Of a stretch of DNA of 64,000 bases, positions 1,685-61,945 are shown in pieces (the stretch's first letter is position 1; each line of letters opens with the position of its first letter). This DNA comes from an uncultured Verrucomicrobiae bacterium (GTDB taxonomy: Bacteria > Verrucomicrobiota > Verrucomicrobiia > Chthoniobacterales > UBA10450), in the NCBI GenBank assembly GCA_963726745.1, contig CAVSDR010000005.1, forward strand, positions 64,001 through 128,000, given 5' to 3'. The notes below the pieces were generated by a model that worked only from the letters and a program-made list of their open reading frames with translations, searched no databases and was not told the origin of the DNA. A program made the translations under genes and the position numbers.

Positions 1685-1688
1685 GTCG

Positions 1689-2948
1689 TTAGGCTTTCAC
1701 GCGCTCGATGTGCGCGCCGAGCGCCCCGAGCTTTTCATCGAGATGCTCGTAGCCGCGGTCGATGTGATACACGCGGCTGATCTCGGTCGTGCCCTCGGCT
1801 TTCAAGCCGGCAAGCACGAGCGCAGCGGAAGCGCGCAGATCGCTCGCCATCACCGGCGCGCCGAAAAGTTTCTCCACGCCCTGGATGATCGCCGTGGGCC
1901 CCTCGATCTGCACGTGCGCGCCCATGCGCTTCATCTCCGCCAGGTGCATGTAGCGCTGCGGGAAAATGTTTTCCGTGATCACGCTGATCCCTTCGGTGGT
2001 CGCAAGCAGGGCGCACATCTGCGCCTGCATGTCGGTGGGAAATCCGGGATACGGCTCGGTCGTGAGTTCGAGTGGCTTGTGCGCGCCATTGGGCGTGACT
2101 GTGATCGACGACCCGTCGACGTCGATCTGGTAACCCGCTTCGGTCAACGCATGGGTCACGGCCGTGACATGCGTGGCATCCGCCCGCGTGACTGTGACGC
2201 CGGTCCCGCAAATCGCTCCGGCGACCAGAAAAGTGCCGGCCTCGATCCGGTCGGGAATGATGTCGTGCTCCGCGCCGTGGAGTTCCTTTACGCCTTCGAT
2301 GATCAAGCGCCGCGTGCCCGCGCCTTCGATCTTCGCGCCCATCTTGTTGAGGAAGTTGGCCAGGTCGACCACCTCCGGCTCGGAAGCGGCGCCTTCGATC
2401 ACCGTGGTGCCGTCGGCCAGGACCGCGGCCATCATCACGTTGTCTGTCCCGAGGACCGTGGGCCCAAATTTACCCAGCAAGTTCACCACCGCGCCTTTGA
2501 GCTGCGAGGTGAAGACCTTCACGTTGCCCGCTTCCACGCGCACTGCCGCACCGAGCGCCTCGAACCCGCGCAGGTGCAAGTCGACCGGGCGATCGCCAAT
2601 GACGCAGCCGCCCGGGAGCGAAACCGTCGCCTCGCGGCAACGCGCCAGCAGCGGCCCGAGCACGCAGACCGAAGCGCGCATTCGCCGGACGACATCGTAA
2701 GGGGCGAGCGACTCGACCTTCTCCGCCGTGACCGTGACCGTGCCGCTGGCCCGTTCCACCTGCGCCCCGAGATACATCAGGATCTGGAGCATGTAGTTCG
2801 TGTCGCTCAGGTCCGGCACGCGATGGAGCACGCACGGCTCACGCGTGAGCAGGGTCGCGGCAAGGATCGGCAGGGCCGAATTCTTCGAGCCGCTGACCCT
2901 GATCGAACCGGAAAGCGGCCGGCCGCCGTGAACGAGAATTTTATCCAT
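1689..2948 (-). CDS. murA: UDP-N-acetylglucosamine 1-carboxyvinyltransferase
   Basis: [61 protein letters not shown]. Confidence 0.97.
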
Positions 2949-3778
2949 GCCGTGCGAGGAGGAACCGTGTCACACCGGCATAGTCCTGTCGCTGCGAAAC
3001 GTCGTGGTAATTCCGCTCCGCGAGAAGGGCGGCCAGCGCCTCGGCCTGGCCCAGGCCGATCTCGAGCGCGAGCAGTCCGCCGGGCGCGAGGCGCTCCGGC
3101 GCGGCGGCGATCAAACGCCGGATGATCTCGTCGCCTGTTTCTCCGCCGAAGAGCGCCGTCTCCGGGTCGCGCAAAACCTCGCGGGCCAGGGTCGCGCGGT
3201 CGCCCAGCGGGATGTAAGGCAGGTTGGCCACGATCAAATCAAACGACGATTCGTTAGGCGGCAGGAGATCACCCTGGTGAAAACGGATGCGCTCGCCGAG
3301 CTCCAGTTTCGCGGCGTTGGCCCGCGCGAGCGCGAGCGCTTCCGCGGACAGATCGAGCGCATGCACCTCGGCCTCGGGAAATTTAGCCAGCAAGCTGAGC
3401 GCGATCACGCCGCTGCCGGTGCCGACATCGAGGATCTTCGACGGGGGCTTTTGGATGGTCGCTTGCAGCAGCTCGACCAGCTCCTCGGTCTCCGGCCGCG
3501 GGATCAGGGCGCGCCCGTCGGAAAGAAAAGTGTGCCCGCAAAACTCGACCGTGCCCAGCAAGATGCTGAAGCGGTTCGCCCTGACCGCGGCGCCGGACGA
3601 GATCGCGCAGCGGCACCAACTCTGCCTCGGTAAGGTTGCGCTCAAAGGCGACGTAAAGCTCGATCCGCTTCAAGCCTAACGAGTGCGCCAGGAGATGCTC
3701 GGCATTCAGGCGCGCGCTCTCCACGCCGCGCTTCTTGAAGTAAGCCGTGGTGGTTTGGAGGAGCTCGAGGACGGTCAT
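2941..3778 (-). CDS. prmC: Release factor glutamine methyltransferase (frameshift near 3560)
   Basis: N-terminal part MTVLELL...[12 protein letters not shown] is in one frame and LGTVEF...[24 protein letters not shown] in another. Lies downstream of prfA. Confidence 0.9.
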
Positions 3779-3803
3779 CCGGCGCGCGACTGTAGCGCCG
3801 ATG

Positions 3804-4730
3804 CTACCCCGCAGCGACCGCGGCTTCGCGCCGGCGCGGAATCCCGAGGCTGTCGAAGATCGTGCGCGTCGCGTCCGAGCGATTGAGCGTGTAAAAATGG
3901 ATCCCGGCCACGTGGTTATCCAGGAGGTCGTGGCATTGCTCGAGCGCGAAGTGCACCCCCACACGCTCGACCATTCGGCGGTCGTCGCCGCAGCGCTGGA
4001 GCGCGCGCAGGAGCTTGGCCGGGAAACGCGAGCCGCCCGCGAGCTCCGCGATTCGGCGGCAGCCGCTCATCGAGGTGATCGGCATGATCCCGGCCACGAT
4101 CGGAATGCGAATGCCGGCAAGGTCGCAGCGTTCGCGGAAATCGTAGAAGTCGCGGTTATCGAAGAAGAGCTGGGTGACAATGTAATCCGCGCCCGCCTCG
4201 ACCTTCGCCTTCAGGTGATCCATTTCCACGAGGCGATTCGGCGTGCCCGGATGTCCCTCGGGGAAGCCGGCCACGCCGATGCCGAAACCGCGCGCGTCGG
4301 GGTGCGCGCCGCTCTCGTTGAACTGGCGAATGAATTTCACCAGGTCGACCGCGTGCTGGAAGAAATCCTGGTCGCGCCGATAGCCAGCGAGATCACGCGG
4401 CGGATCGCCGCCGAGCGCGAGGATGTTGCCGATGCGGTTCTTCGCGTAGCGCTGGAGAATGCCGTCTACTTCCTCCTGCTGGTGGCAAACGCAGGTGAGA
4501 TGCGGGATCGGGTCGAGCTTGGTCGTCGTCTGGATGCGCTCGACCAGGTCGTGCGTCAGGTCGCGGGTGGAGCCGCCGGCGCCGTAGGTCACGCTGACGA
4601 AGTCCGGCATGTATTCCTCGAGCTCGCGGATCGTCTGGTAAAGGCTCTCCGCGGCCTCGGCGGTTTTTGGCGGAAAGAATTCGAAGGAAAACGTCGGCGA
4701 ATCCTTCCGCATGATCTCGGTGATGTGCAT
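3804..4730 (-). CDS. metF: 5,10-methylenetetrahydrofolate reductase
   Basis: [55 protein letters not shown]. Confidence 0.95.
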
Positions 4731-4765
4731 CGCGGGAGGATCCTAGCAAAGACGACGCGGTGCCG

Positions 4766-5845: not shown

Positions 5846-5873
5846 GGCGTTTTAGGCAGCGAGATCAGTACAC

Positions 5874-5902
5874 AAAAACGCGGCAGTCGTGGGACCGCCG
5901 CG
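5874..5902 (-). terminator. Rho-independent terminator/attenuator between rpmE and prfA
   Basis: Minus strand reads CGCGGCGGTC-CCAC-GACTGCCGCG followed by TTTTT. Confidence 0.7.
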
Positions 5903-5916
5903 CCAATGTGGAAAAG

Positions 5917-6141: not shown

Positions 6142-6159
6142 GGGAAAATTTGAGTCCGC

Positions 6160-6187
6160 AACCTAGCTTCCCTTCGTCGCGGTGCAA
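6160..6187 (-). promoter_or_regulatory. Possible sigma70 promoter of the rpmE operon
   Basis: TTGCAC-16 nt-TAGGTT on the minus strand, about 20 nt upstream of the rpmE ATG. Confidence 0.3.
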
Positions 6188-6214
6188 GGTCGAATGCGCT
6201 ACCGTGCCGCCGCC

Positions 6215-7591
6215 ATGAACGGAAGCGATGCTGATCCTCTCCTGGAACGCTGGGCCGCGGTTTGCGCCCGGCGCGCAGGGGAAGCGGCGATCCTCGGAAC
6301 TGGCGGCGAGACCGTGCGGACGTTTGCGGAGATCGAGGCGGAAGCGGCGGATTTTGCCAGCGGGCTCTTGGGCGGGCTTGAGCCGGGCGCCGTGCTCGCG
6401 GTGCAGACCGGGAATCATCCTGCGTGGCCGGCGCTTCTGCTGGCGTCGCTCCGGCGCGGGCTGGTTTTTCTCCCGCTCGAGCGCTCGATCTCGGCCGCGG
6501 AACTGGCTGCGGCCTGCGCGGTTTGCCAGGCGGCGGCGGTTTTAGACAGCAACTTGTGCCTAACGAGTCGTGCGGCGGAGCCGATCGTCTGGGAGGGCCC
6601 AAAGCCAGTGCTCCTGAAGCTGACCTCGGGCACGACCGCGGCGCCGCGCGCGATCCGATTCCGCAGCGCGCAATTGCTGGCCGATGCCGACCAGATCTGC
6701 GCGACCATGGGGATTACCGAGCGCGACCGGAATTTCGGGGTGATCCCGGTTTCGCACTCCTACGGCTTGAGCAATTTGATCACGCCGCTCCTGGCGCATG
6801 GCGTGCCGCTGGTCCTGAGCAACGACCGGATGCCGCGCGCCGTCCTCGCCGATCTCGCCCGCAGCGGCGCGACCGTGTTTGCCGGCATGCCGGTGTTTTA
6901 CCAGGCGTTTTGCGAACTCGATGCCGTGCCGCCGCTGCGCCTATGCCTTTCGGCGGGCGCGCCGCTGCCGTTGCCGGTGGCGCGAAAATTCCAGGAGAAG
7001 TTCGGGCTCGCGATCCACTCGTTCTACGGTTCGTCGGAATGCGGCGGGATTTGTTACGACCGCACGGCGGCGCTGGAGGAGGCAGGATTTGTCGGCGCGC
7101 CGATGAGTGGCGTGGAGCTGGAGTTGCTCGAACCGCTGGCGGAAATGAGCCGCGTCCGCGTGCATTCGGCCGCGGCAGGCGATGGCTATTTTCCCGAGCC
7201 GGAGCCGGAGAAACTCGGCGGCGGCTGCTTCGCGCCGGACGATCTCCTGGCCCCTTGCGGCGATGGCTTCCGGATCGCCGGCCGCGTTTCCGACGTGATC
7301 AATGTTGCCGGCAAAAAAGTGAACCCGGCAGAAGTGGAAGCCACGCTGCTGGCCGCGCCCGGGGTGCGTGCGGCGGTCGTCTTCGGGCGGGTTTCGCAGT
7401 TGCGGAATGAGGAGGTGGCCGCTTGCGTGGTCGCGGCGGACGGAGTGGAAGCGCGGGCGCTGCTGGAGTTTTGCCGCACGCGCCTAAGCGGCTGGCAGGT
7501 GCCGAAGCGGATCTTCTTCCTCCCGGAAATGCCGGTGACGGAGCGTGGCAAGATTAGCCGACGCGCTCTGGCGGCTCGCTTTGCTGCGTGA
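6215..7591 (+). CDS. Class I adenylate-forming enzyme (acyl-CoA synthetase family)
   Basis: LTSGTTAAPR P-loop, FYGSSECG, GRVSDVINVAGKKVNPAEVE, C-terminal PVTERGK. Confidence 0.85.
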   Translation: MNGSDADPLLERWAAVCARRAGEAAILGTGGETVRTFAEIEAEAADFASGLLGGLEPGAVLAVQTGNHPAWPALLLASLRRGLVFLPLERSISAAELAAACAVCQAAAVLDSNLCLTSRAAEPIVWEGPKPVLLKLTSGTTAAPRAIRFRSAQLLADADQICATMGITERDRNFGVIPVSHSYGLSNLITPLLAHGVPLVLSNDRMPRAVLADLARSGATVFAGMPVFYQAFCELDAVPPLRLCLSAGAPLPLPVARKFQEKFGLAIHSFYGSSECGGICYDRTAALEEAGFVGAPMSGVELELLEPLAEMSRVRVHSAAAGDGYFPEPEPEKLGGGCFAPDDLLAPCGDGFRIAGRVSDVINVAGKKVNPAEVEATLLAAPGVRAAVVFGRVSQLRNEEVAACVVAADGVEARALLEFCRTRLSGWQVPKRIFFLPEMPVTERGKISRRALAARFAA

Positions 7592-7655
7592 GAAAACATG
7601 CGCCCATTTGCGCGCGAGTTTGCGAATAGGAGGAAACGAAAGGAAACCAAAAACC

Positions 7656-7778: not shown

Positions 7779-7790
7779 GCCTCGATTCCA

Positions 7791-13215: not shown

Positions 13216-14107
13216 CGGCGCCCAAGCGCTCCCGCACCAGCGCCGCGCCCCGGGCCGAAACCCCGCGCACGATCGTCACTTTCCGCCCGCGCCCGCTGCG
13301 TAGTCGCCCAGCCGCGTCCACTTCCGCTCGTCCCTCCATGGCGGCGGCAAACTCCGGCCGCGCCGCGCGCAGCACCACCGCGGCGTCGAAGATCGGCCCG
13401 CCGCTTTCGCCCACGTAGCGCGTCCAAAACCAGAGCCAGACCCGGCTGCGCCGCGCGAGAAATTGCCCCGCCGGTCACCGGCGCGCCGCAGCGCCGCCAG
13501 GTCCGGCGCGCGCAGCTGCAGCTCGGCCGCGGCGCGGATCGGCACCAGCGTCATCGGAATCCCGCTGCGCAGGACTGCGCGCACCGCCGCGGGATCCTTG
13601 AAGACGTTCGCATCGTGAATGCGCAACCGGTCGTTAGGCCCGAAGCGGAGCGCGTTCGGTGCGTCCTCGCCGCCGAGGAAAATCACCCGCTCAATCCGGC
13701 GCGCTAGCGCGGGCTCGCGCTTGAGCAGCGCGGCCAGATTCGTCAGCGGCCCAAGCGCCAGGTAGGTCAGCCGCTCGCTCGCCAAAGTGCTGGCTAATTT
13801 CGCCGCCGCCGGGGTGGCCGTCGCATCGCCTGCTCCCTGTGCGCCGCGAAAAACTTCGCCTTTTCCGAACAGCCCCACGAGTTCTTGCGCAACTGCGGTC
13901 GTGCGCGCCACCCCGGCGTTTCCGTAAGTGCTGCTGATCCCGACGATCCGCAGTTCCGGCGAACGGAAGGCGAGCGCGAGGGCGTAGGCATCGTCGACCT
14001 CGCGCCAGGGCGCGCCGATTGCCGGATCGGTATCGATCCAGACTGCGGTGCGGCCCAAGGCGCAGCCGGCCAGCAGCAGCGAAAGGAGGAAGCGCGCGCC
14101 CGATCAT
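13205..14107 (-). CDS. Inosine/uridine-preferring nucleoside hydrolase family protein (frameshifts near 14093 and 13470)
   Basis: WIDTDP...DDAYAL, ISSTYGNA, ALGPLTNLA, DANVFKDPAA, PIFDAAVV. Confidence 0.8.
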
Positions 14108-15961
14108 TCCGGCGGTTTCGCCGTGCCACTGGTCCAGGCGGGATCGGGCGCGCTCGCGAAGACTTCGCGGTCGGATTGCAGGGCGTTCTGGAGATTCTCC
14201 ATGTGCTGGCGCGCGATCGAGACGTAGACCTCGTCATCCGCGTCGCTCTCGAGGTCGGCCATGGCGCGGACGGAAGTTTCGTCGTGCTCGCGGAAGAGAT
14301 GGGCCGCGCGGTAGGCCCGTTTGCCGCGCACGCCGAGCGCACGCGGAGCGCATCGATGCTCAGGTCGAGCGCGCTGCCGAAAGTTTCGCGGTGCACTTGC
14401 TTCACGCCCCGGCGCAGAAGCTCATAGGCATGTTGCCGGCTCAGCGCCCGCGCCAGAATCTGCAAATGCGGGAAGTGCTCGTGCAAGAGATCGACCAGCA
14501 CGAGCGACCGCTCTTCGTCGTCGATCGCGATGATGAAAAGGCGCGCGCGCTCGGCTCCGGCGGTGCGCAGGAGGTCGAGCCGGGTGGCGTCGCCGTAGAA
14601 CGAAGACATGCCGAAGCGGCGGAGCAGTTCCACCTGCTCCTGGTCGTAATCGAGCACGGTCAGGCGAAAGCCATTCGCGCGCAGCAAGCGGCCGACGATG
14701 TGCCCGAAGCGGCCGAAGCCGGCGAGGATCACGGGATTGTCGTGCTCGGTAATTTCATCCGCGGCGCGCTCCGGAACGCGCGGGGTGAAGAGCGGCTGCA
14801 CGAGGCGTTCGTTTGCAGTCAGGAGGAAGGGCGCGGCCGCCATGCTCATGGCGATGGAGGCGATCAGGAGGTTGGCTAATTCCGCGGGCAGGACGCCGTT
14901 TTGCGTCGCGAACGAGCAGAGGACGAAGGCAAACTCGCCGCCCTGCGCGAGGGCGAAGGCGAGCAGGAGCGCCTGCCCATTTTCGAGGCGGAAGGAGCGG
15001 CCGAGCGCGAAGAGGACGACAAATTTAAGCAGCAAGATGGCGGCGACGAAGCCGGCGATCGTGCCCGGTTCGCGGCCGATGAGGGCGAAGTCGATGCTCG
15101 CGCCCACGGAGATAAAAAAGAGGCCCAGGAGCAGGCCCTTGAACGGCTCGAGATCGGTCTCGAGCTGCGTGCGGTATTCACTTTCCGCGAGGACCACGCC
15201 GGCGAGGAAAGTCCCGAGCGCGGGCGAGAGACCCACGCGTTGCATGAGCAGGGCGATGCCGACCACGAGCAGGAGGGCGGTGGCGGTGAACATCTCGCGC
15301 AGGCGCGTCGCCGCGATGTAACGCAGGAGCGGCCGGAGCAGGAAACGCCCCGAGACGATCACCGCCGCGACCGCCGCGAGCACGATCAAGCCGCGCGCCC
15401 AGGGCGGCAAGCCCGCCTAACGAGTGGTCGTGCAGGGCGTCGCCCGCGCGCGGCAAAGTCGCGAGCAGCGGAAGGAGCGCGAGGATCGGGATGACCGCGA
15501 TGTCCTGGAAGAGAAGAATGGAAAAGGAAGCGTGCCCGCCGCTGGTGCGGAGGAGGTTCTTCTCGTTGAGCGACTGGAGCACGATCGCGGTTGAGGACAT
15601 CGCCGCGATGAGCCCGACGGTAAGCGCGACCTGCCAGCGCATCCCGAAGACGAGCGCGCTCGCCCCCACGACCAGCGGCCGTGGCCACGACCTGCCCGCC
15701 GCCGAGCCCGAGGATTTCGCCGCGCGATTGCCAGAGCAACGCGGGCCGCAACTCCAGGCCGATGAGGAAAAGCATCATGACCACGCCGAACTCGGCGAAG
15801 TGCATCACCCCGCCGGCCTGGCCCACGAGCCGGAGCGCATACGGCCCGATGACCACGCCGGCGATGAGATATCCGAGGACGGAGCCGAGGCCGAGGCGCT
15901 TAGCCAGCGGGACGGCGATGACCGCGGCGAGCAGATAAATGAAGGCTTCGAAAAAGCTCAT
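14104..15961 (-). CDS. CPA2 K+/H+ antiporter with KTN/RCK domain, KefC/KefB-like (frameshifts near 15680, 15410 and 14340)
   Basis: [83 protein letters not shown]. Confidence 0.88.
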
Positions 15962-15974: not shown

Positions 15975-16554
15975 TCAAGATGGGCGCGCCCGCGCGCGCT
16001 CGGTGAGATCGAAGGTGCCATCGCGCAGGGCCGCGAGCGTCCGCGCATACTCCTCCGCGTGCGCCTCGATCTGCGCGTCGCTCATTTCAAAGGCGCCGGG
16101 AATCACGAACGGCGGGAGGTATTCCATCCCGCAAAAGCGCGCCGTCTGCTCGAGCGGCGCGAGGAATTCCCGCACGGTGAAGTGATTGAGCGCGCCGCGA
16201 CCGTAGCTCTCGGCCCCGCCGCCGGTGCTGATGACCGAGAGCATTTGCTTGCCCTGGAGAGCGACGCCGTCCGTGCCGTAGGCAAAGCCATGCTCGAGCA
16301 CGAGGTCCTGCCATTCCTTCAGAATCGCGGGCGTGCTGTACCAGTAAAACGGATGCTGCAGCACGATCAGGTCATGCGCCCGCAGAAGCTGCTGCTCGCG
16401 CGCGACATCGATGTATTGCTCCGGGTAGGCCTCGTAGAGATCGTGCCGCGTGATCCCGTCGCCTAACGAGTCCAGACGCGCGAGCAGCGCGCCGGTGCAC
16501 GCGCGATTTCTCGAGCGCGGGATGGGCAAAGAGAATGAGCAGGCGCGCCGGCAT
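15975..16554 (-). CDS. Flavodoxin-like NAD(P)H oxidoreductase, KefF/KefG-type ancillary protein (frameshift near 16490)
   Basis: ILFAHP...[41 protein letters not shown]. Directly upstream of the Kef transporter. Confidence 0.88.
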
Positions 16555-37813: not shown

Positions 37814-37816
37814 CGA

Positions 37817-41948: not shown

Positions 41949-42779
41949 ATGGAACCTCGCGCGCGACGCTCCGCTGGTGGGAAAAAACCGAGCGGCTCGC
42001 GGGTTAAGATCGCTCCCTACGTCGTTCCCACGCGGCGCCCGCCGGCCGGCCGCGCGCCCATCCCGGTGATGGTGCCAACTCGCTGGGTAAAATTTGTCAT
42101 CGCGCTCCTTTTCCTGCCGTTTGCCGCCATCCTCACGCAGACGTTTTTCACCGTCTTCACCCGCGCGACGGTCACGCAGCAGTTCTGGGCCGGGGAAGAA
42201 TTCTGGTTCTTCTCGTTAGGCGTCGTCTTGTGGCTGATCGCTTTCTTCGGCTTGCCGCGGCCGCTCACGGCTTATGTTTTCGGCCACGAACTGACCCACG
42301 CGATCTGGGTTTGGCTGATGGGCGGACGGGTCAGCCAATTCAAAGTCGGCCGCAGCGGCGGGCACATCGTGACCGACCGGAACAATTTCTGGATCTCGCT
42401 CGCGCCTTACTTTTTCCCGATCTACAGCATCCTCGCCCTCGCGCTTTACGGCGGGCTGAGCTTCTTCTTCCCAGTCCAGCCATACGGGAAGCTGCTCTAC
42501 GCGATCATCGGGATCACCTGGGCCTTCCACGCCACCTTTACGCTCTGGATGATTCCGAAGAGCCAGACTGACCTGACGCACAACGGCACCTTCTTCTCGC
42601 TCGTGCTCATCTACGTGATGAATCTGCTTCTCCTGAGCGTGATGTTGATCGTCGCTTCGCCGCAAATCGGCGTGGGCGACTTCGCGATGGAGGTGGGGGA
42701 AAACGCCGATCGCGTCCTCGGTTTCTTCGGGCACTGGTTCGATCGCTTCGCGCGCGGGTATAACCCGGTGACGCGCTAG
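41949..42779 (+). CDS. Membrane protein with HExxH motif (peptidase M50-like)
   Basis: YVFGHELTHA, ISLAPYF, several TM helices. Confidence 0.65.
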   Translation: MEPRARRSAGGKKPSGSRVKIAPYVVPTRRPPAGRAPIPVMVPTRWVKFVIALLFLPFAAILTQTFFTVFTRATVTQQFWAGEEFWFFSLGVVLWLIAFFGLPRPLTAYVFGHELTHAIWVWLMGGRVSQFKVGRSGGHIVTDRNNFWISLAPYFFPIYSILALALYGGLSFFFPVQPYGKLLYAIIGITWAFHATFTLWMIPKSQTDLTHNGTFFSLVLIYVMNLLLLSVMLIVASPQIGVGDFAMEVGENADRVLGFFGHWFDRFARGYNPVTR

Positions 42780-45720: not shown

Positions 45721-47358
45721 ATGAGATGCTTCCGCGGTGGCGTGGTTCTTGGGCTGGCCGCCCTGGCCATGCCCTCGCTGGCAGCCGAGGAGCACGCGGG
45801 CCACAGCTCGTTAGGCAAAGTAGATTTCCCGGTCAGCTGTTCGCCGGCGGCGCAGGAGGAGTTCACCCACGCGGTCTCGCTGCTCCATCACATGACCTAT
45901 CCGCAGGCGCGCGCGGCGTTTCAGCAAGCGATGAAAACCGACCCGTCCTGCGCGTTGGCGCAATGGGGCTTCGCGATGACGCTCTTCCAGCCGCTTTGGC
46001 CCACGCGCCCCAGCCCGGCAGCGCTGCAAGCTGGCTGGGAAGCGGTGCAAAAAGCACAGACGCTGGACGCGCCCACGGCCCGCGAGCGCGCCTTCATCGC
46101 GGCGGCGGCGGCGTTCTTCGAGGAACCGCAGGCGGACGATTATTGGGCGCGCATCCGCCGTTGGGAAGCAGCCATGGCGAAGGCCTACGCGGCCTTTCCG
46201 GAGGACGATGAAGTGGCTGCCTTTTATGCGCTGGCCCACCTGGCGACGGCGCCGGCCGACACCATCTCGCGCGAGCATGCCGATCGCGCGGCCGCGATTC
46301 TCCTGCGGCTCTACAGGAAGAATCCCGAGCATCCCGGCGCGATGCATTACCTGGTGCACGCAAACGACGTGCCCGGCCGCGAACGCGAGTCGCTCGAGAT
46401 CACGCGCCGCTACGAGTCGATCGCGCCCAACAACCCGCACGCGCTCCACATGCCCACGCATATCTACACGCGGCTGGGCGATTGGGACGGGGTGGTGCGG
46501 GGCAACTTGAAGGCGGCGGAAGCGGCGCTGGCCCACCCGGCGGGCGAGCGCCAGGAGTATGTCTGGGACGAGTTTGCCCACGCGATCGAATACCTGGTCT
46601 ACGCCGATCTGCAGAAAGGCGACGATGCCGCCGCGGCCGCGCAATTAAATCGGCTGCACGGGACGCCGCAACTCGAGCCGAGCTTCAAGACGGCGTTCCA
46701 TCTCGCCTCGACCCGGACGCGTTATGCGCTGGAGCGCCGGGATTGGGCCGAGGCCGCAAAGCTGGCCGCGCGTGAGCCCGCCGCGCTGCCGTGGGATCGC
46801 TATCCCTGGGCGGAAGCGATCGCGCGTTTCGGGCATGGCCTGGGCGCGGCGCATCTGGGCGAACTCGACGCGGCCAAGGCCGACATCGCGCGCTTGCGAG
46901 CGCTCGAAGAGGTGGCGAAAGCATCCGGCGAGGAACTCTTCCAGCGGCACATTCGCGTGGCCCGCCTGGAACTGGAAGGCTGGAGCGCGCAGGTCGCCGG
47001 CGAAGGCGAGCGCAGCCTCGCGCTCCTCCGGGAAGCCGCCGAGCTGGAAAGCGCCACGCCGAAACATCCGGTCACGCCCGGCCCGACGCTCCCGGCACAC
47101 GAGTTGTTAGGCGACTTGCTCCTGGAACAGGGCGCGCCGGCCGCGGCGGCGGCGGCTTACCAGCGTTCGCTCGAGCTTTACCCGCGCCGCCTGAACAGCC
47201 TCCTCGGGGCCGCACGCGCCTCCGCCGCGGCCGGCGATGGCGCCGCCGCGCGGAAATTTTACCAGCAACTTGTGGCCCTCGCCGGCCAGGGCACGCGCCG
47301 CGCGCCGCTCGCAGAAGCGGAAAAATTTCTCGCCGCAGGCGAAACCGCGTCTCGTTAG
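45721..47358 (+). CDS. Secreted TPR-like helical protein
   Basis: Signal peptide, GKVDFPVSC, HPGAMHYLVH, PHALHMPTHIY. Ala-rich helical repeats. Confidence 0.7.
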   Translation: MRCFRGGVVLGLAALAMPSLAAEEHAGHSSLGKVDFPVSCSPAAQEEFTHAVSLLHHMTYPQARAAFQQAMKTDPSCALAQWGFAMTLFQPLWPTRPSPAALQAGWEAVQKAQTLDAPTARERAFIAAAAAFFEEPQADDYWARIRRWEAAMAKAYAAFPEDDEVAAFYALAHLATAPADTISREHADRAAAILLRLYRKNPEHPGAMHYLVHANDVPGRERESLEITRRYESIAPNNPHALHMPTHIYTRLGDWDGVVRGNLKAAEAALAHPAGERQEYVWDEFAHAIEYLVYADLQKGDDAAAAAQLNRLHGTPQLEPSFKTAFHLASTRTRYALERRDWAEAAKLAAREPAALPWDRYPWAEAIARFGHGLGAAHLGELDAAKADIARLRALEEVAKASGEELFQRHIRVARLELEGWSAQVAGEGERSLALLREAAELESATPKHPVTPGPTLPAHELLGDLLLEQGAPAAAAAAYQRSLELYPRRLNSLLGAARASAAAGDGAAARKFYQQLVALAGQGTRRAPLAEAEKFLAAGETASR

Positions 47359-50300
47359 CCGCGCGTGCGCGCCTTGCGCCAGCGAGCGACCAGAAGCAGC
47401 GCCGTGCCCGCGACCGCGAGGGCCGCGGGAGCGGGCTCGGGGACGAGGAGAGTGTTGGCGGCGGAAGCGTTGAAGCCGAAGGAATCGCCCACCGTGGTCG
47501 CGGTCAGCGAAAGCGAAAATTGGAGATCAAGGGTGCCGTTTACGCCGGTCCCGATCGCGCCCAGGTCGACGACGGTGCCGTCGAAAAACGAGATCGCGCT
47601 GCTGAGCGTGGTGAAGCTTTGGTCGACCACCACAAGGTTCTCGCGCAGGACCTGGAGCGTGAGCGAATGGAAGCCGCCGCCGGTGAATTGCGGCGCGAAA
47701 AATCCGAGCTTGAGCTGGTGCTGCGCCGGAAGCTGCGCGAGGTCGATCGAGAAAGTGATCTCGCTGGCAAAAGTACGCGGCGCTCCCGAGCCATCGGCGG
47801 GATAACCGCCCGCGAGGAATAACTGCGCCAGCGTATCGGCGCCGAAGGGCCCGCCCGCGGCAGTGGGCAGGCCGGTGGCAAAGGCCGCGGCTTCGAGCTG
47901 GTTTGCGAGCATCGGTGAAGGCGCTGGCTGCCCCACGGCGGCGCGCGCTTCGGTTTCGCTGGTGCTCCCGACCGGCGCGCTCGCCACTGCCTGGATGGTG
48001 GTGATGGCGCCGCCGCTCGAACTCGCGCTGGAACTCGAGGTGCCGCTGCTGCCGGTGGCGCTGGCGTGGGCCAGGGCGCTGCCGCCTAACGAGTCGTTCC
48101 GCCCGGCGCCGCCCGTGGCGGTGGCGCTGGCGCTCACCTGTCCCAGGCCGGTGGCGCTGGCCTTCGCCGTGGCCGTGCCGCCGGCGCCGCTCGTGGTCAT
48201 GCTCCCGCCGCGCAAGCCCCCGAGCCCGCCGGTGGCGGTGGCCTTCGCGAACACCGCGCTGGCCTGGCCGCTGGCGATCGCAGTGGAATGGGCGCTGCCG
48301 CCGTTCCCGCCGTGGCCGGTGCCATCGGAGATCGAACCGCCCGCGCCGCCTTGTGCCACATCCTCCGCGCTCGCGCTGCTCGCACCGAGCGCGGTCGCGC
48401 TGGAAGTGCTGGTGCCGCTGCCACCCGCGCCGGCCTGGCTGTTGCTCGCACCGGAGACCATTCCGCCGGCGCCGCCCAGACCCATGCCAAAGGCCTGGAC
48501 CGCCTGCCCGTCGCCGGACGTCTGCGCGGTTGCGCTGGCCTCCCCGTCGCCCCCGTTTCCGCTATCAGATCCCAGGAAGGCGTTCCCGCCACTCCCGCCG
48601 CGCGCATTTGCATCGGCTCGGGCTGCGCCGCCGCTGTTCACGGAACTGGTGGTGGCAGTGCCGTTGGCTCCGCGACGCGAACTGCCGAGCGCCGCGCTGC
48701 GCATTCCGCCCGCGCCGCCAACGGCGAAAGTCTGGAGGTGGAGCAACCCACTGGTGTTCTTCGACCGGTTTAACGTGCTCTCCGCGGTCCCGCCGAAGCC
48801 CGCCGCGCCGGCCAAGGCGGAGCCGCCATTGCCGCCGGCGGCGACCTGGCTCAGGAGCACCGGGCCGGTGCTGTCGCCATCGAGCGCGTTGTTAATCGAG
48901 GCGGCGGCTCCGTGGCCCGCGGAGCCCATGCCGGAGGTGACACTGCCGCCGGTGCCGCCGGTTTGCGTGCCGCTGAGGTTCAGGGACGCGCCGCCGGTGG
49001 AAGTGGCGCTCACATTGCCGAGGACGGCCGTCGCCCCATCTCCCGCGGATGGTCCGTCGACGGTGTTGCCGCCCGCGCCGCCGGTGGCGGTGACGATGCC
49101 GGAGAGGGAAGAAGCGTTGTTGCTGGAAAGGGCGAGCGCCGCGGTTGCGCCCGCGCCGTGGGAGCCCGCCACATCCTGGCCCTCGCCGCCCGCGCCGCCC
49201 AAAGCGCTGACTATTCCGGTGAGCATTCCGCCAGCTGAGTTCGAGGCGGTGAGCGTGGAACTGGCCGCGCCCGCCTCTCCGGCCACGCTGCCCGCGCCTC
49301 GCGCCGCACCGCCGTCTCCGCCGGTTGCACTTTGCGTGAGCTGCAAGGCGCCCGCAGTCGCGCCGCTGACGGCATTGTGGATCGTGCTGCTGGCGCCGTT
49401 GCCGGCGGTGGCGCCAAAGTAGGCCGCGCCGCCCGCGCCGCCGATTTGGTTCGCGCTCGCGCTGACGTTGCCGCCGCCATTGGAATTTCCGCTCGCGCTC
49501 GCGTTCGCGCTGCCGCCCTGCCCGCCAAAGGTGCCGCCCCCGGCCGCCTGGCCGCCGCGGCCGCCCTCTGCGGTATTCGCGACCGTGACGTTCCCGCTGC
49601 CGGCCGTGCTGCCGGTGCCGCCGGCGGTCGCCTGCCCGCCCGCGCCTCCGCTGCCCTGGCCAGTGTCGACTGCGGCTACGCCGCCGCCGGTGCCGCCGGT
49701 GGCCGTGGTGGAAAGGGAGGCGAGGTTGCCGTCGGCCGTGACGGTGCCGGTGACGACGGCCTCGCCGCCGCTGCCGCCATGAGTGGTCGTCGCGCCGGTC
49801 GCGATCGCGCCGCCCAAGCCGCCGGTCGCGAGACCGATGGCGGCAGCGGGATTGCTCGCGCCACTGGCCGTGGCCATCGCGCTGCTGCTGGCCTTCCCGC
49901 CGGCGCCGCCATGGCTGCCGCCAAATCCTTGGCCGCCCATGCCGCCGTATGCCTCCGCATTGGCGCGGGCCAGGCCGGCGTCGTTGGTCGAGTTGGCGAT
50001 TGCGGTCGCCTGGCCGGCGGCGCTTGCGGTGCCGGTGCCGGAATGGAGTGCGCCGCCGTTACCGGAAGTGGCGGCGGTGTTAATCGTGAGCCCGGCAAAG
50101 CCGCTCAAGCCCGTTTGGCTGCGCGTGAGCGAGCTAAACGCGTCGCCGGCAGCGCCCGCGGCGGAATACCCCGCGCCGCCGGAACCGCCGCCGACGGTTT
50201 GGTTGAGCGTGACGCTTCCGCCACTGGCCGCGTGGCCATCGATGGCGTCGACTAAATGGACCGACGCGCCCTTGCCGCCCACGCCGCCGGGCGAGATCGC

Positions 50301-52492: not shown

Positions 52493-53305
52493 ATGAGCAA
52501 TCCAAACAAAGCCCTCTGGGAGAAAGGCGACTTCACCCGCATCGCGGCGACCATGCGCGAGAGCGGGGCGGAATTGGTCCGGCGGATCGGGATCGGGAAA
52601 GGGGACAAAGTCCTCGAGCTCGGCTGCGGCGATGGCACCACCGCGATTCCCGCGGCGCAGCTCGGCGCGGAAGTTCTCGGCGTGGATATAGCCAGCAACC
52701 TGGTCGCCGCGGGCCACGCGCGCGCCGCCAAGCTGGGACTGGCAAATTGCCGCTTCCAGGAAGGCGATGCCTCGAAGCTCGACGGCCTGCCGGATGACAC
52801 CTTCGATTACGTCGTCAGCATCTTCGGCGCGATGTTCGCCCCGCGTCCGTTCGATGTCGCCAAGGAGATGGTCCGCGTAACCCGGCCCGGCGGGAAGATC
52901 GTCATGGGCAACTGGATTCCCGGCGACCCGACGTTGGTCGCGCAGATCCTTCGGATCAGCTCCGCCTACACCGCACCGCCGCCGGAAGGATTCGTTAGTC
53001 CGATGACCTGGGGCCTCGAGGAGCACGTGCGCGAGCGCTTTGCCGCGGCCGGCATCGCCCCGGAAAACATCTCCTTCATTCGCGAGTCGTTCACCTTCCG
53101 CTTCGACGGCCCGCCGGCCGGCTTGGTCGACGCCTTCAAGACCTACTACGGCCCAACGATGAACGCCTTCGAAGCCGCGGAAAAGAACGGCCGCGCCGCC
53201 GAGTTGCAGCGCGAGCTGGAGGAACTCTTCGTTAGCCAGAACCAGGCTAAGAATAATGCCACCGAAATCGCCGCCACTTTTCTACGAGTGACGGTGCAAC
53301 GGTAA
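52493..53305 (+). CDS. Class I SAM-dependent methyltransferase
   Basis: VLELGCGDG, GVDIA, EGDA, FDYVVSIFGAMFAP, VTRPGG. Confidence 0.88.
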   Translation: MSNPNKALWEKGDFTRIAATMRESGAELVRRIGIGKGDKVLELGCGDGTTAIPAAQLGAEVLGVDIASNLVAAGHARAAKLGLANCRFQEGDASKLDGLPDDTFDYVVSIFGAMFAPRPFDVAKEMVRVTRPGGKIVMGNWIPGDPTLVAQILRISSAYTAPPPEGFVSPMTWGLEEHVRERFAAAGIAPENISFIRESFTFRFDGPPAGLVDAFKTYYGPTMNAFEAAEKNGRAAELQRELEELFVSQNQAKNNATEIAATFLRVTVQR

Positions 53306-53316: not shown

Positions 53317-55027
53317 CTACATCCGCTCCGGGACTTCGATGCCTAACAAGTCGAGACCGCGCTGGAGAATGCGGGCGGTGAGGTGGCAGAGGGCGAGGCG
53401 GGTGCTGCGGGCGGGCTCGTCGGCCTTGAGGACCGGGCAGGCTTCGTAGAAGCCGTGGAAGTGGTTGGCTAATTCGAAAAGGTAATTAGCCAGCACATTG
53501 GGGCGGAAGTCGTTCAGGACCGTAGGGACGATCTCGGCGAATTGGCAGAGCTTCTTCGCGAGGACGATCTCCGCGGGCTCGGCTAACGAGAGGTTGTCGG
53601 CTATTTTTTCCGCGGCGCCGGCTTTGCGGAAGATCGACTGGATGCGGACGTAGGCGTTTTGCAGGTAGGGCGCGGTGTTCCCCTGGAAGGAGAGCATCCG
53701 GTCCCACGAGAAAACATAGTCGGTCATCCGATACTGCGAGAGGTCGGCATACTTGACCGCGCCCAGGCCGATGATGCGCGCCACCGCCTCGCGCTCCGCC
53801 GCGGGCAGCTCGGGATTTTTCTCGTCGACGATTTTTTGCGCGCGCGCCATCGCCTCGTCGAGCACGTCCTGCAGGGCGACGTTTTCGCCACTGCGGGTCT
53901 TCATCAATTTGCGGTCGTCGCCGAGGATGCTGCCGTGGGTGATGTGGCGGAAATCGGCGGTGAAACCTTCGCGCCGGGCGATCTCGAAGATCTGCCGGAA
54001 GTGCAACTGCTGGGGCGCGCCGGTCACGATCCAGATGGTGTCGCGCGCGAGATCGTGAATGCGGTAGTCGACCGTGGCGATGTCGGTGGTGGCGTAGTTA
54101 TAGCCGCCGTCGCGCTTCTGGATGATCGCCGGTTTGTCGGCGAGTTCCGGGATGTCGCGGAAGAAAACGCAGGTGGCGCCTTCGCTTTCCTCGGCCAGGC
54201 CAGCAGCCTTCAAACGCGCAACCACCCCGGCGAGGCGGTCGTTAAAGAAACTCTCGCCGCGCTGCATGTCGTAGCGGATCCCGAGGAGGCGATAAGCGCG
54301 GGCAAATTCGCCTAACGAGAGGTTCACGCACTCCTGCCAGATGGCAAAATTTTCCGGGTCGCCAGCCTGCAGCTTGACCAGCTCCGCCTTGCAGGCTTCG
54401 CGCACTGCGGGGTCGGCCGTGCCGCGTTCGTTCGTCTCCTTGTAGATGCGGACGAGCTCGGCAATCGGAGCACGGGCGAGCGCCTCGCGATCCAACAAGT
54501 TCTTCCAGCCCCAGACGACCATGCCGAACTGCGTGCCCCAGTCGCCGATGTGGTTGTCGCGGATGACGTCGTGCCCGAGGAACTCGGCGATGCGCGCAAG
54601 CGTGTCGCCCAGGACGATCGAGCGGATATGGCCGATGTGCATCGGCTTGGCCACGTTGGGCGAGCCGAAGTCGATCACGATCTTTTTCGGATGACTCGTT
54701 AGGGCAACGCCCAGGCGGTCGTCGCGGAGGAGGGCGCTGGCTTTCGCGGCCACGGCTTCGGGTTGGAGGGTAAAGTTAACGAAGCCGGCACCGGCGATGG
54801 TGGGCGGGCCGCAAAGGTCGGTCGACGGCCAGGCATCGACGATCTGCTGGGCGAGGGCGCGGGGGTTTTGCCCCAGCTTCTTCGCGAGCACGAGGGCGAC
54901 GTTGCTCTGGTAATCGCCGAAGCGCGGATCAGTCGCCGAGCGCGACCTCGGCGGCGTCGGTGGGAAGCCCAGCGGCGGTGAGGGTGCCGGCTAATTTTTG
55001 CGCGAGCTGCGCCTGAAAAGTTTCCAC
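53317..55027 (-). CDS. argS: Arginine--tRNA ligase (frameshift near 54940)
   Basis: FGDYQSN, AGAGFVN, SPNVAKPMHIGH, GDWGTQFG, KLMKTRSG, GNTAPYLQ, C-terminal PERM. GTG start at 55027. Confidence 0.95.
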
Positions 55028-55030: not shown

Positions 55031-55495
55031 CTACTTCTGTGGGCGGTCGCGGAAGATCGCGAGGATTTCTTCGGACGACTTCGCCTGCGCGAGGCTCTCG
55101 CGGGTGGCGCGGTCGTTCAGGAACTTGGCGATCGAGGCGAGCGTGCGCAGGTGCGTCTGGAATTGATTCTTCGGGACGACGAAGAGGACGACAAATTTAA
55201 CCGGCGCATTGTCGAGCGCGTCGAACTCAATTCCGCGGGTGGAGCGGCCGAAGGAGGCGACGACCTGGTCGATCCGGTCGGACGAGGCGTGGGGAATGGC
55301 GATGCCGAAGCCGATCCCGGTGCTCATGGTTTCCTCGCGTTGCTTGAGCGAGGCGAGGATGCTCTCGCGGTCGTCGCCCTTGATTTTGTCGAGGCTAACG
55401 AGCAGATCGATCAGTTCGACGATGGCGGGCCAGCGTTCGGTGGCCTGCATCTCCGGAATGATCTGCTCGGCAGATAGTAGGCTCGCCAAAGACAT
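55031..55495 (-). CDS. PTS IIA domain protein (PtsN/fructose-type)
   Basis: REETMSTGIGFGIAIPHA, FDALDNAPV, HLRTLA. Confidence 0.88.
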   Translation of the reverse strand: MSLASLLSAEQIIPEMQATERWPAIVELIDLLVSLDKIKGDDRESILASLKQREETMSTGIGFGIAIPHASSDRIDQVVASFGRSTRGIEFDALDNAPVKFVVLFVVPKNQFQTHLRTLASIAKFLNDRATRESLAQAKSSEEILAIFRDRPQK

Positions 55496-57786: not shown

Positions 57787-57856
57787 ACCGGCTGGAATCA
57801 CCCTACTTATTTCGCGCCCGAACTTTCGTCGTCACTCACTCCGTCATCCAATAAAT

Positions 57857-60800: not shown

Positions 60801-60997
60801 TAGCCGATCTCTTTGGCGGCGGCGTCTTCATCCCGGAAGGCACGGTGGTGCAGGACGGCATGAAGTTTAGCGGCACGATCACCGGCGGCGGCGTCTTTGA
60901 AGGCAACATCCGCAACCGCATCGGCAGCGGCTACACCCCAGTCGACGGCTACGGAGTGATCAACATCGAGTCGGCCGTGAACCAGCCTCTGCCCTAA
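57857..60997 (+). CDS. Secreted subtilase (S8/S53-like) with PPC-like insert (copy 1)
   Basis: Signal peptide and prodomain, LSDS, DEGRGM, IVDD, SSAGN, FSGTSAAAPH, C-terminal GYGVIN. Confidence 0.85.
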   Translation: MKLSSHLRPFLKGTLCTALVLASAASLLYAKPVPSNLGYGLDKLVESKLAIQQAAARGPRALAAATRYNGYATEEAASYAAEAITEESTGRVTVDITLRGTRSMDDVTAQLAAQVPSFSVVARDGSYRGVGIIEAWISVEDVATVAKMEGVRAVFLALKPQLDSVIAIDPQSYSPTRIVPALREVARATKTVEPYVTPGQVLKKIGTTFDQGVTQHRVDKINQLYNPSAPVNYDGTGISIGALSDSYNTRTLAPHADTGVANFDLPGAVGNPINSQPVVVLKDQATAGTDEGRGMLEIVHKMAPRARLAYATGVDGEVAFANYVRALAGLPGFTFDPSIQQGFKADVIVDDISYGGEPFYGESIIGGGIDDVAAAGVSYFSSAGNNIGTNAYESFLRIIPADSNALVGTNINLTGVPTNLYAGGFHNFNPNPGQQDIAALWNMPTGSPGATEMQWDDPYDIRDPILNQPAIYSNSGTIDNTTTTVNFNDIPVFNQGVGYVINTKGTSGDIDTVVMLIDPDGNTVVNQDTGVDETVYFYAPRSGQYRITVGRYSTTIGSFTITINTTQTPASVTTDLNLLVFRADTGAYLGTKSLTTDNLANNRPVELGSSSTVSSPTGQTQLQFVIARANNPTAPQLPTRVRISTRGNGAAGIGPAEYFSYNATTTKGHATAKGGNGVAAYSPFRPNVPESFTSPGPATILFDKNANRLAVPDIRLNPTVAAIDAANTSFFGSDTNRDIDVNPNFSGTSAAAPHAAALAGLVLQAKGGSGSVTPTQMRTMLQRSAFPHDLDPSYASGTARATNGGKITITINSDNSANVNTGRNDPNSIAVSYVGPGSLASLTFNPSGTATDGGNVTGGNNGYTDDAGTTPPNGTITYFANYFPGLVFLPATKGFTLGNLTGLTAGDITAPTNASPYTGFSNLAPAPANGTSQFWTMSLGFPTGNFTGGKVLRFTVGRGTAHGPQVSNSTGPTGGSVLDFPLADLFGGGVFIPEGTVVQDGMKFSGTITGGGVFEGNIRNRIGSGYTPVDGYGVINIESAVNQPLP

Positions 60998-61021
60998 CGA
61001 GCGGAGCAACGAGCGATCTTG

Positions 61022-61060
61022 CGCGGCAGGCCGGGAAACTGGCCTGCCGCGTTTGTTTTT
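61022..61060 (+). terminator. Rho-independent terminator
   Basis: CGCGGCAGGCC-GGGAAACT-GGCCTGCCGCG followed by TTTGTTTTT. Confidence 0.8.
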
Positions 61061-61243
61061 AGACAGCAAGTTGTCGCCCGCGCGCACCCGCGGGAGAGGA
61101 CCGGCGCGACGCGAGGGAACTCGTTTCGAGAGGGCGCGAATAATGATTGACCGCCCCGATCTCAATCCGCAGGATCGCCGCTCTTCTGGCTCGCGCTGAG
61201 CCCTTTCCAACCCAACGATCCCACCCCGCCCGCATCCCCGTCT

Positions 61244-61945
61244 ATGGACTCACTCCGTTTCATCCGCCCGTTTCTTGGCCTCGCCAGCTGCCTGGCTCTC
61301 TCCGCCTCCGCGCTCCAGGCGCAGACCTACACTGAAACCGGCGACGCCGGTCAATCGCTCCCCAGCGCCCAGGCCACGGGCACGAGCAGCGGCAATCCCC
61401 TAACGACCATCTTCGGGACGCTGTCGAATGGCTCGGATGCCGACCTGTTCCTGATCATGATCACCTCGCCGACGATGTTCTCGGCCACGACGAACAATTC
61501 CCTGACGATCGCTTCGGGCCTGGATACGGCGCTCTTCCTTCTCAATAGTTCCGGCGCCGCGATCTACACGAATGACGACGCCAATGGCACCACGCTGCAA
61601 TCGACCTTGCCCGCTGGGAGCAGCTTCACCATGTCGCTCAGCCCGGGAATTTATTACCTCGGCATCAGCATTACCGGGAACGAGCCGGTTAACCTGAACA
61701 ACCAACTCCTGTTCGCCGGCTATCCCGGCGGCGATTCCACCGCCGTGCGCGGGCCGGCTGCCGGCATCAGCCCCCAGACGCTTTCCTCCTTCAACGGCGC
61801 GAATTCCTTTTCGCAATCCGGCGCCTATCGGATCGACCTGACCGCGACCGCCTCCGCCGTGCCGGAGCCCTCGGCCGTGGTCTTGAGCGTGGCCGGGATT
61901 CTCCTGCTCGCGGTCTTCCTGCGCCTGCGTCGTCAATCGGCCTAA
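61244..61945 (+). CDS. PEP-CTERM protein with PPC/DVUA0089-like domain (copy 2)
   Basis: Paralog of 57091..57786 (ETGDAGQSL, DTALFL..NDD, GNEPVN, YRIDLT), VPEPS followed by a TM segment and RLRRQ. Confidence 0.85.
   Translation: MDSLRFIRPFLGLASCLALSASALQAQTYTETGDAGQSLPSAQATGTSSGNPLTTIFGTLSNGSDADLFLIMITSPTMFSATTNNSLTIASGLDTALFLLNSSGAAIYTNDDANGTTLQSTLPAGSSFTMSLSPGIYYLGISITGNEPVNLNNQLLFAGYPGGDSTAVRGPAAGISPQTLSSFNGANSFSQSGAYRIDLTATASAVPEPSAVVLSVAGILLLAVFLRLRRQSA

Follow-up and report, generated by a model that had tools for sequence, protein, structure and literature searches.

The repeated word and its abundance

The DNA considered here is a window of 64,000 nucleotides (positions 64,001 to 128,000 of contig CAVSDR010000005.1, assembly GCA_963726745.1) from an uncultured Verrucomicrobiae bacterium of the Chthoniobacterales (lineage UBA10450), in and between whose open reading frames (ORFs) a short, asymmetric sequence is scattered, CTAACGA (TCGTTAG on the other strand). 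It is called the word below; its full 10-mer form is GCCTAACGAG and its 12-mer form GSCTAACGAGTC. The source genome, designated G000 (the window is G000:C5:64001-128000, and other genomes and contigs are numbered likewise), has 3,406,779 bp in seven contigs at 62–64% GC and was probably assembled from long reads; a crude in-house caller yielded 2755 ORFs, which cover 90% of it.

In the window the word occurs 40 times (23 copies on the plus and 17 on the minus strand; Table 1), just where an earlier note made from these letters alone had placed it, while 100 dinucleotide-preserving shuffles gave a mean of 2.75 (SD 1.62, maximum 8) and none reached 40. The nine 12-mers reported there were likewise recovered at the same starts, with 0.01 expected, and 18 of the 40 copies are perfect 10-mers. 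The near-matches reading CTAACAA exist as well but number five instead of four (21960, 43150 and 53343 on the plus strand; 38441 and 47104 on the minus strand), and the description of the copies as almost entirely intragenic holds roughly, since 32 lie within ORFs, four supply the stop codon of an ORF and four fall between ORFs. The whole of G000 contains 2025 copies (1034 plus, 991 minus), that is, one per 1.68 kb in 3.41 Mb, and 820 copies of GCCTAACGAG against a zero-order expectation of 7.7. This excess is also present when codons are taken into account: in 20 within-gene shuffles of synonymous codons, which keep both amino acids and codon usage, the 7-mer falls within ORFs 151.7 ± 9.4 times (maximum 168) and the 10-mer 9.8 ± 3.1 times (maximum 16), compared with 1672 and 659 in the genome. 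In keeping with the remark that the motif uses otherwise rare codons, 680 of the 3354 TTA and 334 of the 2008 CTA codons of G000 belong to a copy of the word.

The logo of the 2025 copies reads G(0.87) C(0.75) CTAACGA G(0.64) T/A and is flat past about three bases on either side; because the flanks of the copies are unrelated, the word is not a repeat element. Counts of one-off variants show the core, C-T-A-A-C-(G, or A in about 10%)-A, to be 95–100% fixed, compared with 62–85% for the outer G, C and G; of the 21 core variants, 18 do not exceed 12 copies, and the commonest one is a CpG-to-CpA change. This change is asymmetric between the strands: the CAAG variant, GCCTAACAAG, has 93 copies in G000 although in the commonest frame it alters the amino acid, and the TGAG variant, GCCTAATGAG, has none though it is synonymous there. 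The related genome G048 (56% GC) has the same logo and repeats the asymmetry, with 16 copies versus 1.

A signal carried by the DNA

The word is found in all six frame and orientation classes of G000 (antisense 668, 214 and 80 copies; sense 321, 308 and 156; a further 278 between ORFs), and 236 of the 2755 ORFs terminate at its TAA or TAG. The tripeptide Ser-Leu-Gly is written TCG-TTA-GGN in 502 of 811 instances, where codon usage predicts 0.9%, and Pro-Asn-Glu is written CCT-AAC-GAG in 150 of 253. Both tripeptides are themselves in excess (811 versus 519 expected, permutations 445–601, and 253 versus 107 expected, permutations 58–180, respectively), so the force that maintains the word has altered proteins.

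How the copies come and go can be followed in the ORF of 998 residues at 27944-30940, for which 81 sequences were collected (the ORF itself and 80 other loci); three with in-frame stops were removed, and the 78 that were kept are 65–78% identical. The ORF shares no site with its ortholog in G010 (none of its own six and none of the seven of G010); at the word sites the partner sequences are similar and differ by substitutions, some being double changes without effect on the amino acid (CTC to TTA, for example). Taken together, the 78 orthologs carry 134 copies over 31 aligned positions, 17 of which are unique, and four of the six sites of the window ORF are found in no other ortholog. The position shared most often (by 43 orthologs) sits on a Pro-Asn-Glu that is conserved in 61 of the 78, and in a column that otherwise reads Ser-Phe-Asp, eight of the nine Ser-Leu-Asp exceptions contain the word. 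A similar picture is given by 21 orthologs of ComEC, with 23 copies over 18 aligned positions, four of them shared. The word is thus to be found at whatever positions a protein can accommodate, and these positions are subject to turnover. The copies arise by point substitution, and the word is maintained by a force acting on the DNA and not on the proteins.

Placement in the genome

Counts on the two strands were compared in 100-kb windows split by the sign of the GC skew. The word has no replichore polarity, with a plus to minus ratio of 146:153 at positive and 604:585 at negative skew (odds ratio 0.92, p 0.56), whereas the same test applied to GGGNAGGG, a word of the type of the FtsK-orienting polar sequences (KOPS), returned 34:10 and 40:148 (odds ratio 12.6, p 5e-12); GC skew thus marks the replichores of G000. 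As GGGNAGGG is strongly strand-polar genome-wide, it is a candidate KOPS-like word of this lineage in its own right. Near position 100000 of contig C5 (about 36000 of the window), the GC skew flips from +0.020 (50–100 kb bin) to −0.018 (100–150 kb), and gene orientation changes at the same point from 14:28 to 22:7; this switch may mark an origin or terminus of replication within the window.

Density is even across all contigs of G000, at about 30 copies per 50 kb. It climbs with local GC, from 0.8 copies per 10 kb below 59% GC to 7.7 above 65% (Spearman 0.42), while the word itself is 50% GC and thereby AT-richer than the genome; genes of the lowest decile of GC at third codon positions carry 0.31 copies per kb versus 0.53–0.58. 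The longest word-free gaps (>10 kb) are islands of lower GC, one of which, 25 kb at 58% GC and devoid of the word (G000:C7:60030-85007), is probably recently acquired DNA. Compared with a null that follows local density, spacings below 300 bp are depleted (0.34–0.79) and those of 300–2000 bp enriched (1.15–1.27); pairs at 100 bp or less number 44 where 117 are expected.

Distribution among genomes

Comparison was made with 34 genomes of the genus, five from other genera of the family and 16 from 15 other families of the Chthoniobacterales, the reversed word serving as control. Figures for G001, G008 and G042 come from unpublished genomes, and the conclusions are independent of them. All 34 genus genomes exceed the control, from 51 versus 40 copies in G002 to 1749 versus 40 in G048, that is, from 14 to about 480 per Mb, with ten at 240 per Mb or more (G000, G001, G010, G013, G024, G042, G044, G047, G048 and G049). 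Four of the five other genera are enriched as well (618, 491, 299 and 165 copies, controls 33–45) and the fifth, G050, is not (22 versus 35); in the 16 genomes of other families the word is at or below control. The earlier assignment to a single verrucomicrobial lineage needs correcting, for the word is family-wide. Its density differs more than 30-fold among related species, and in a tree of ComEC dense and sparse genomes even appear as sisters (456 versus 81 per Mb; 390 versus 44).

Altogether the word is enriched in 38 assemblies besides G000, many of them in hundreds of short contigs. Three soil metagenome runs of one study, which matched only small shares of the window, contain short contigs with differing flanks in which the sites at 25505, 30320 and 30923 are unchanged; since these runs could stem from the source sample itself, the support from the three sites is weak and possibly not independent.

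Sparse genomes do not hold a reservoir of decayed copies, for counts with up to one mismatch are below control (403 versus 628 in G005, 339 versus 583 in G002, 452 versus 519 in G075). Neither was a dialect recovered from low-density G002, where a k-mer scan of 400 kb gave no alternative dispersed word. The same sample contains a repeated element unrelated to the word, with AGCGTGAGCCCATC and GTCATCCCGA in about 30 copies, which resembles repetitive extragenic palindromes or miniature inverted-repeat transposable elements.

Coincidence with the integron core

The earlier note knew of no described motif with this sequence, a statement that overlooks a connection: integrons have the core site GTTRRRY and the inverse core RYYYAAC (PMC3053210), and GTTAGGC/GCCTAAC fits this textbook consensus, so that the word is a core site plus three bases. 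The link is apparent in G048, where a stretch of 50 kb with 51 equally oriented copies revealed an array of 46 repeats, 420–780 bp apart, that adjoins an integron integrase gene (C7:262924-263865; 429 bits to TIGR02249, for which the cut-off is 265 bits). The repeat, of about 125 nt, reads RYCTAAC-CAGGCGATGCAGCGAAC ... GTCGCTGATCTTGNGT-CTCGTTAG-RY. In the consensus fold of the 26 repeats that were aligned, RYCTAAC pairs with GTTAGR, a central spacer is open, and the inner boxes pair around bulged bases; the R''/R' and L''/L' stems comprise 21 pairs, seven of which show compensatory changes. The repeats therefore have the architecture of the integron recombination site attC.

The same attC, together with an attI site ending in (T/C)CTCGTTAGRY, was found beside intI in G018, G005, G016, G046, G023 and on contig C1 of G048, which include sparse and dense genomes, and the same attC/attI core stands beside intI in G098, G108 and G062, which belong to further genera of the family. 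The crossover core of the integrons of this family is therefore the 10-mer CTCGTTAGGC, namely, the R' box of attC plus three bases. Integrons of other families have different flanks, for example, NCGTTAGGCC in G067. Integrons were noted in Verrucomicrobia by Cury et al. (PMC4889954); of 81 genomes sampled from the order, 32 encode an integrase above the cut-off.

A covariance model (R1) built from the 26 aligned units of G048 found 24 attC in G000 and none in the window. With 2025 words in the genome, about 99% of the copies are thus solitary; they reside inside housekeeping genes, on both strands, without L boxes or hairpin. G000 itself has no integron integrase; the best match to TIGR02249 scores 80 bits, and a single intI remnant of 52 residues was located (C2:58739-58894). 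Word density follows neither integrase nor the number of attC: among the 34 genus genomes, IntI exceeds the cut-off in 15, five of the ten dense ones and ten of the 24 others, and attC is present in all 34 as well as in all five of the other genera tested, including G002 (32 attC, 51 words) and G050 (24 attC, 22 words, control 35). A general rule by which genomes enrich the core of their integrons was also dismissed, the corresponding CGTTAGGCC of other families having 19, 15, 7 and 11 copies versus controls of 87, 80, 103 and 60. This integron type is older and wider than the enrichment of the word, and a further factor, present in part of the family only, spreads the word.

As to the integrons themselves, G000 has about 18 attC in one orientation without an integrase at C6:736300-745300 (a cluster of attC sites lacking integron integrase, CALIN) and smaller groups at C2:58980-60425 (by the intI remnant), C3:633200-635400, C4:149600-151070 and C4:24500-25420. 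Complete chromosomal integrons of G048 lie at C7:262924-292000, C1:281706-285300 and C3:784000-804400; at least 46 attC form one array and at least 103 attC hits were obtained genome-wide.

Transformation and methyltransferase genes

G000 encodes the components that transformation requires: ComEC (849 residues), DprA, a ComEA-like helix-hairpin-helix protein, ten ATPases of the T2SSE family (short PilT-like ones included) and three secretins. Presence of ComEC and DprA was rejected as a discriminator, both being intact in word-poor G050; since word-free relatives encode them too, transformation genes would be necessary but not sufficient. In two sparse genomes ComEC is split into two frames or contains a TGA (G005, C12:409293-409950; G075, C9:459447-460251), which could be real decay or frameshift errors of long reads.

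For known uptake systems, the receptor of the uptake signal sequences (USS) of Pasteurellaceae is predicted to be ComN/PpdA (PMC12616744), and the minor type IV pilin ComP serves the DNA uptake sequences (DUS) of Neisseriaceae. Seven pilin-like ORFs of the N_methyl type are present in G000, with two clusters resembling minor pilins. One lies beside dprA (C6:622.9-626.1 kb) and has its closest orthologs in low-density G015, G018 and G002; the other, paralogous one (C3:584.4-586.9 kb) does not track density either. The first stands in a region (G000:C6:617000-626200) with topA, dprA, ssb, rpsF and pth on one strand and, opposite to them, three pilin-like ORFs of 161, 232 and 531 residues, the last with DUF7305; the second (C3:584400-586940) has genes for a PilB-like ATPase and a Xer-like recombinase in its vicinity. 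Methyltransferase genes of G000 comprise one C5, one N6/N4 and two of type I. The C5 enzyme was discarded as a driver, close orthologs being confined to G013 and G046 among the 33 other genus genomes.

Comparison with known systems and interpretation

Among described systems the word most resembles DUS and USS, as the earlier note had held in calling it non-palindromic, unpolarised, mostly intragenic and DUS/USS-like, a description that is upheld. Like these, it is short, occurs about once per 1–2 kb on both strands irrespective of replichore, is found inside genes in every frame, takes precedence over codon usage and alters proteins; it is confined to one family in which density varies strongly, and its one-off variants are graded by position. 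It differs in belonging to another phylum and in that no pilin receptor was identified among the candidates tested. About half of the DNA uptake enhancing sequences (DUES) are located in terminators (10.1101/2025.10.24.684340), whereas the copies of G000 are arranged neither as inverted pairs nor as terminators; in addition, coincidence with an integron core is not mentioned for DUS or USS in the accounts cited here. With the attC/attI core the word shares the crossover sequence of the family, but not the extended flanks beyond about three bases. The highly iterated palindrome HIP1 of cyanobacteria (GCGATCGC) is likewise a hyper-abundant, short, intragenic word, its function being described as unknown (PMC4390886); unlike the asymmetric word, it is a palindrome and associated with orphan methyltransferases, while the C5 methyltransferase of G000 is not conserved across the genus. 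Chi, KOPS and architecture-imparting sequences (AIMS) are comparable in length (7–10 nt), asymmetry and kilobase spacing; they are strand-polar with replication and the word is not.

The explanation we tentatively prefer, though we would give it somewhat less than an even chance, is that the word is a transmission-bias tag of the uptake-sequence type that coincides with the integron core. GCCTAACGAG, with its core CTAAC(G/a)A, would be a family-specific mark of own DNA, kept at about one copy per 1–4 kb by biased transmission (molecular drive) like that proposed for DUS and USS: fragments carrying it would be favoured in exchange between relatives, most plausibly at uptake in natural transformation, so that point mutations that create the word would be over-transmitted and those that destroy it under-transmitted. 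No established process of this kind is known other than the molecular drive proposed for DUS and USS (PMC1939737). The sharpened core, the CAAG/TGAG asymmetry, the turnover of positions and the fast change of density argue for recognition of the whole word together with a transmission advantage, and against a function exerted site by site. Every integron cassette carries one copy of the word and would gain from the same bias; in Vibrio, transformation delivers single-stranded cassettes that are recruited by chromosomal integrons (PMC12614218), which suggests that a tag in every attC would pay by way of cassettes. Both the placing of the bias at uptake and a functional link to integrons are our inference.

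Several observations weigh against this explanation. Uptake alone leaves the identity of the word with the integron core unexplained; ComEC and DprA are intact without the word in 15 of the 16 genomes from other families and in G050; no receptor was found, the orthologs of the two tested pilin-like clusters not following density; the shortage of close pairs is not repeated in 400 kb of G048 (24 versus 26), a sample that is partly integron array; and there is no pairing as inverted repeats of the kind known from DUS and USS (among the 44 pairs at 100 bp or less, 10 are +/− and 10 −/+). In a further version, to which we would give perhaps one chance in a handful, the machinery of DNA exchange in this family, at uptake or at another transfer step, would itself read the integron core; exchange would be aimed at cassettes, and the solitary copies would be a by-product of drive.

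Of about the same, rather low, likelihood is that the solitary words are secondary sites of the integron integrase (attI-like or attG), at which cassettes could land, from which new ones could be made or which would act as decoys. The identity of the 10-mer with the R' box of attC plus three bases and with the attI core beside intI in nine genomes speaks for it, as does the attC fold with its seven compensatory pairs. The 236 ORFs ending at a stop codon supplied by the word could be read in the same way; ORFs of cassettes often end likewise, in the R'' box. Moreover, the mechanism that creates cassettes is described as unknown (PMC4889954). It is weakened, however, by the lack of any relation of the word to integrase or to attC number and by its expected cost, recombination at off-target sites being thought harmful (PMC10127599): G000 maintains the word sharply without an integrase, dense and less dense genomes encode IntI alike, other families leave the cores of their different integrons unenriched, convergent pairs able to fold like attC are not in excess, and no known step of a recombinase makes sites by point mutation. 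An abundant nucleoid-associated or chromosome-organising protein that binds the word, with density under selection, would fit the even distribution along all contigs, the spacing in G000 and a sharp logo of 8–10 bp resembling a footprint; against this improbable reading stand the change of density among related species down to background level in G002, G003, G005 and G050, positions that are mostly not conserved and a spacing pattern absent from G048, and no nucleoid protein is known whose site is enriched about 100-fold.

The abundance of HIP1 has been tied to methyltransferases (PMC4390886), and the word might by analogy be the by-product of a sequence-specific methyltransferase coupled to biased repair of the very-short-patch type, as the earlier note had considered. 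G000 does have four methyltransferase genes, and the commonest core variant is indeed a CpG-to-CpA change, but this option went unsupported and seems quite improbable to us: the word is non-palindromic with 8–10 specified positions, every position of the core is sharpened and not just one, the CpG product expected on the opposite strand has no copies in spite of being synonymous, and close orthologs of the one C5 gene are limited to 2 of the 33 other genomes of the genus. A polar site of the Chi or KOPS type or an artefact of sequencing or assembly, finally, might be entertained on account of abundance and length, which are within the range of such sites, and of the probable long-read origin of G000. 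The prospects of both are negligible, and as far as sequence data go they are refuted: the word is unpolarised where GGGNAGGG is strongly polar, it recurs in the 38 further assemblies, orthologs show substitutions that respect codons, and three sites of the window are identical in metagenome contigs, possibly of the source sample. With this, the base-calling error and the replichore polarity that the earlier note had named as what would speak against its reading are set aside.

Uptake sequences are known, according to the sources cited, from two proteobacterial families only, and the reason for their existence is debated (PMC1939737; 10.1101/2025.10.24.684340). If the exchange machinery did read the integron core and so aim at cassettes, the word would be the first self-tag of the uptake type outside the Proteobacteria and the first mechanistic link of uptake specificity to integrons; the same genomic signature in abundant, uncultured soil Verrucomicrobiota would broaden the phenomenon. 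The related genomes form a natural series that extends from zero up to about 480 copies per Mb and in which the responsible gene can be searched for by comparison. Identity with the integron core is unexpected, as off-target integrase sites are thought harmful (PMC10127599) and yet are enriched about 100-fold here, genomes that encode an integrase included. Either reading touches on the spread or the origin of cassettes: a tag would aim transformation at cassettes, or the chromosome would be seeded with recombination cores. In the literature the 7-mer and the 10-mer were met only within primers and similar sequences (supplementary files were outside the scope); work on uptake sequences in Verrucomicrobia had no description of such a word, and work on integrons in Verrucomicrobia or Chthoniobacter nothing on a dispersed core word. 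The tie of a dispersed word to the integron core is, as far as we could find, new.

Copies in the window and a second word

Table 1. Copies of the word in the window, from a word search overlaid with ORFs (frames are given relative to the ORF; 10-mer, GCCTAACGAG; 12-mer, GSCTAACGAGTC)
Position	Strand	Form	Context
1686..1692	-	word	TAA is stop of minus-strand ORF
3251..3257	-	word	sense xCT-AAC-GAx
3676..3682	+	perfect 10-mer	between ORFs
6560..6566	+	perfect 10-mer, 12-mer	sense CTA-ACG (Leu-Thr)
13631..13637	-	word	between ORFs
15417..15423	+	perfect 10-mer	between ORFs
16463..16469	+	perfect 10-mer, 12-mer	antisense TCG-TTA-GGC (Ser-Leu-Gly)
17663..17669	+	perfect 10-mer, 12-mer	antisense Ser-Leu-Gly
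18799..18805	-	word	sense xCT-AAC-GAG
19431..19437	+	perfect 10-mer	antisense Ser-Leu-Gly
24021..24027	+	word	antisense TCG-TTA
24617..24623	+	word, GG variant	antisense xTC-GTT-AGx
25055..25061	+	perfect 10-mer	antisense xTC-GTT-AGG
25505..25511	-	word	between ORFs; unchanged in soil-metagenome contig differing nearby
25698..25704	+	12-mer, GG variant	antisense TCG-TTA
27999..28005	+	perfect 10-mer, 12-mer	sense CCT-AAC-GAG (Pro-Asn-Glu), 998-aa ORF
28667..28673	+	word	sense CTA-ACG, 998-aa ORF
30095..30101	-	perfect 10-mer	antisense Ser-Leu-Gly, 998-aa ORF
30320..30326	-	12-mer, GG variant	antisense TCG-TTA; unchanged in soil-metagenome contig
30698..30704	-	12-mer, GG variant	antisense TCG-TTA
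30923..30929	+	perfect 10-mer	sense CTA-ACG; unchanged in soil-metagenome contig
33761..33767	-	perfect 10-mer	sense CTA-ACG
34645..34651	-	word	sense CTA-ACG
37810..37816	+	word	TAA is stop of plus-strand ORF
38745..38751	+	word, GG variant	sense xCT-AAC-GAG
39461..39467	+	perfect 10-mer	antisense xTC-GTT-AGG
42213..42219	-	perfect 10-mer	antisense Ser-Leu-Gly
43446..43452	-	perfect 10-mer	sense Pro-Asn-Glu
43555..43561	+	perfect 10-mer, 12-mer	antisense Ser-Leu-Gly
45808..45814	-	perfect 10-mer	sense CTA-ACG
47352..47358	-	word	TAA is stop of minus-strand ORF
48086..48092	+	perfect 10-mer, 12-mer	antisense Ser-Leu-Gly
52992..52998	-	word	antisense xTC-GTT-AGx
53229..53235	-	word	antisense xTC-GTT-AGx
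53583..53589	+	word, GG variant	antisense TCG-TTA
54312..54318	+	perfect 10-mer	antisense Ser-Leu-Gly
54696..54702	-	word	sense CTA-ACG
55395..55401	+	word, GG variant	antisense xTC-GTT-AGx
60994..61000	+	word	TAA is stop of plus-strand ORF
61400..61406	+	word	sense CTA-ACG

A second hyper-abundant word exists in G000, roughly CAAnnTG-YY-GGCTA followed by an A/T tract; it is neither polar nor arrayed and is not a one- or two-base dialect of the CTAACGA word. GYBGGCTA has 2001 copies in the genome, and GGCTAATT has 423, mostly within ORFs and in two main frames (Glu/Lys-Leu-Ala with TTA, and Leu-Ala-Asn). Its 8-mer starts in the window at 13792, 14874, 18955, 22176, 22915, 27557, 34811, 39214, 42821, 51494, 53467, 53484, 54989 and 58185. 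Enrichment of the form GNNGGCTAATT is restricted to one subclade, with 397 copies in G000, 200 in G011, 102 in G015, 67 in G017, 49 in G018, 47 in G009 and 37 in G002 (controls 9–17).

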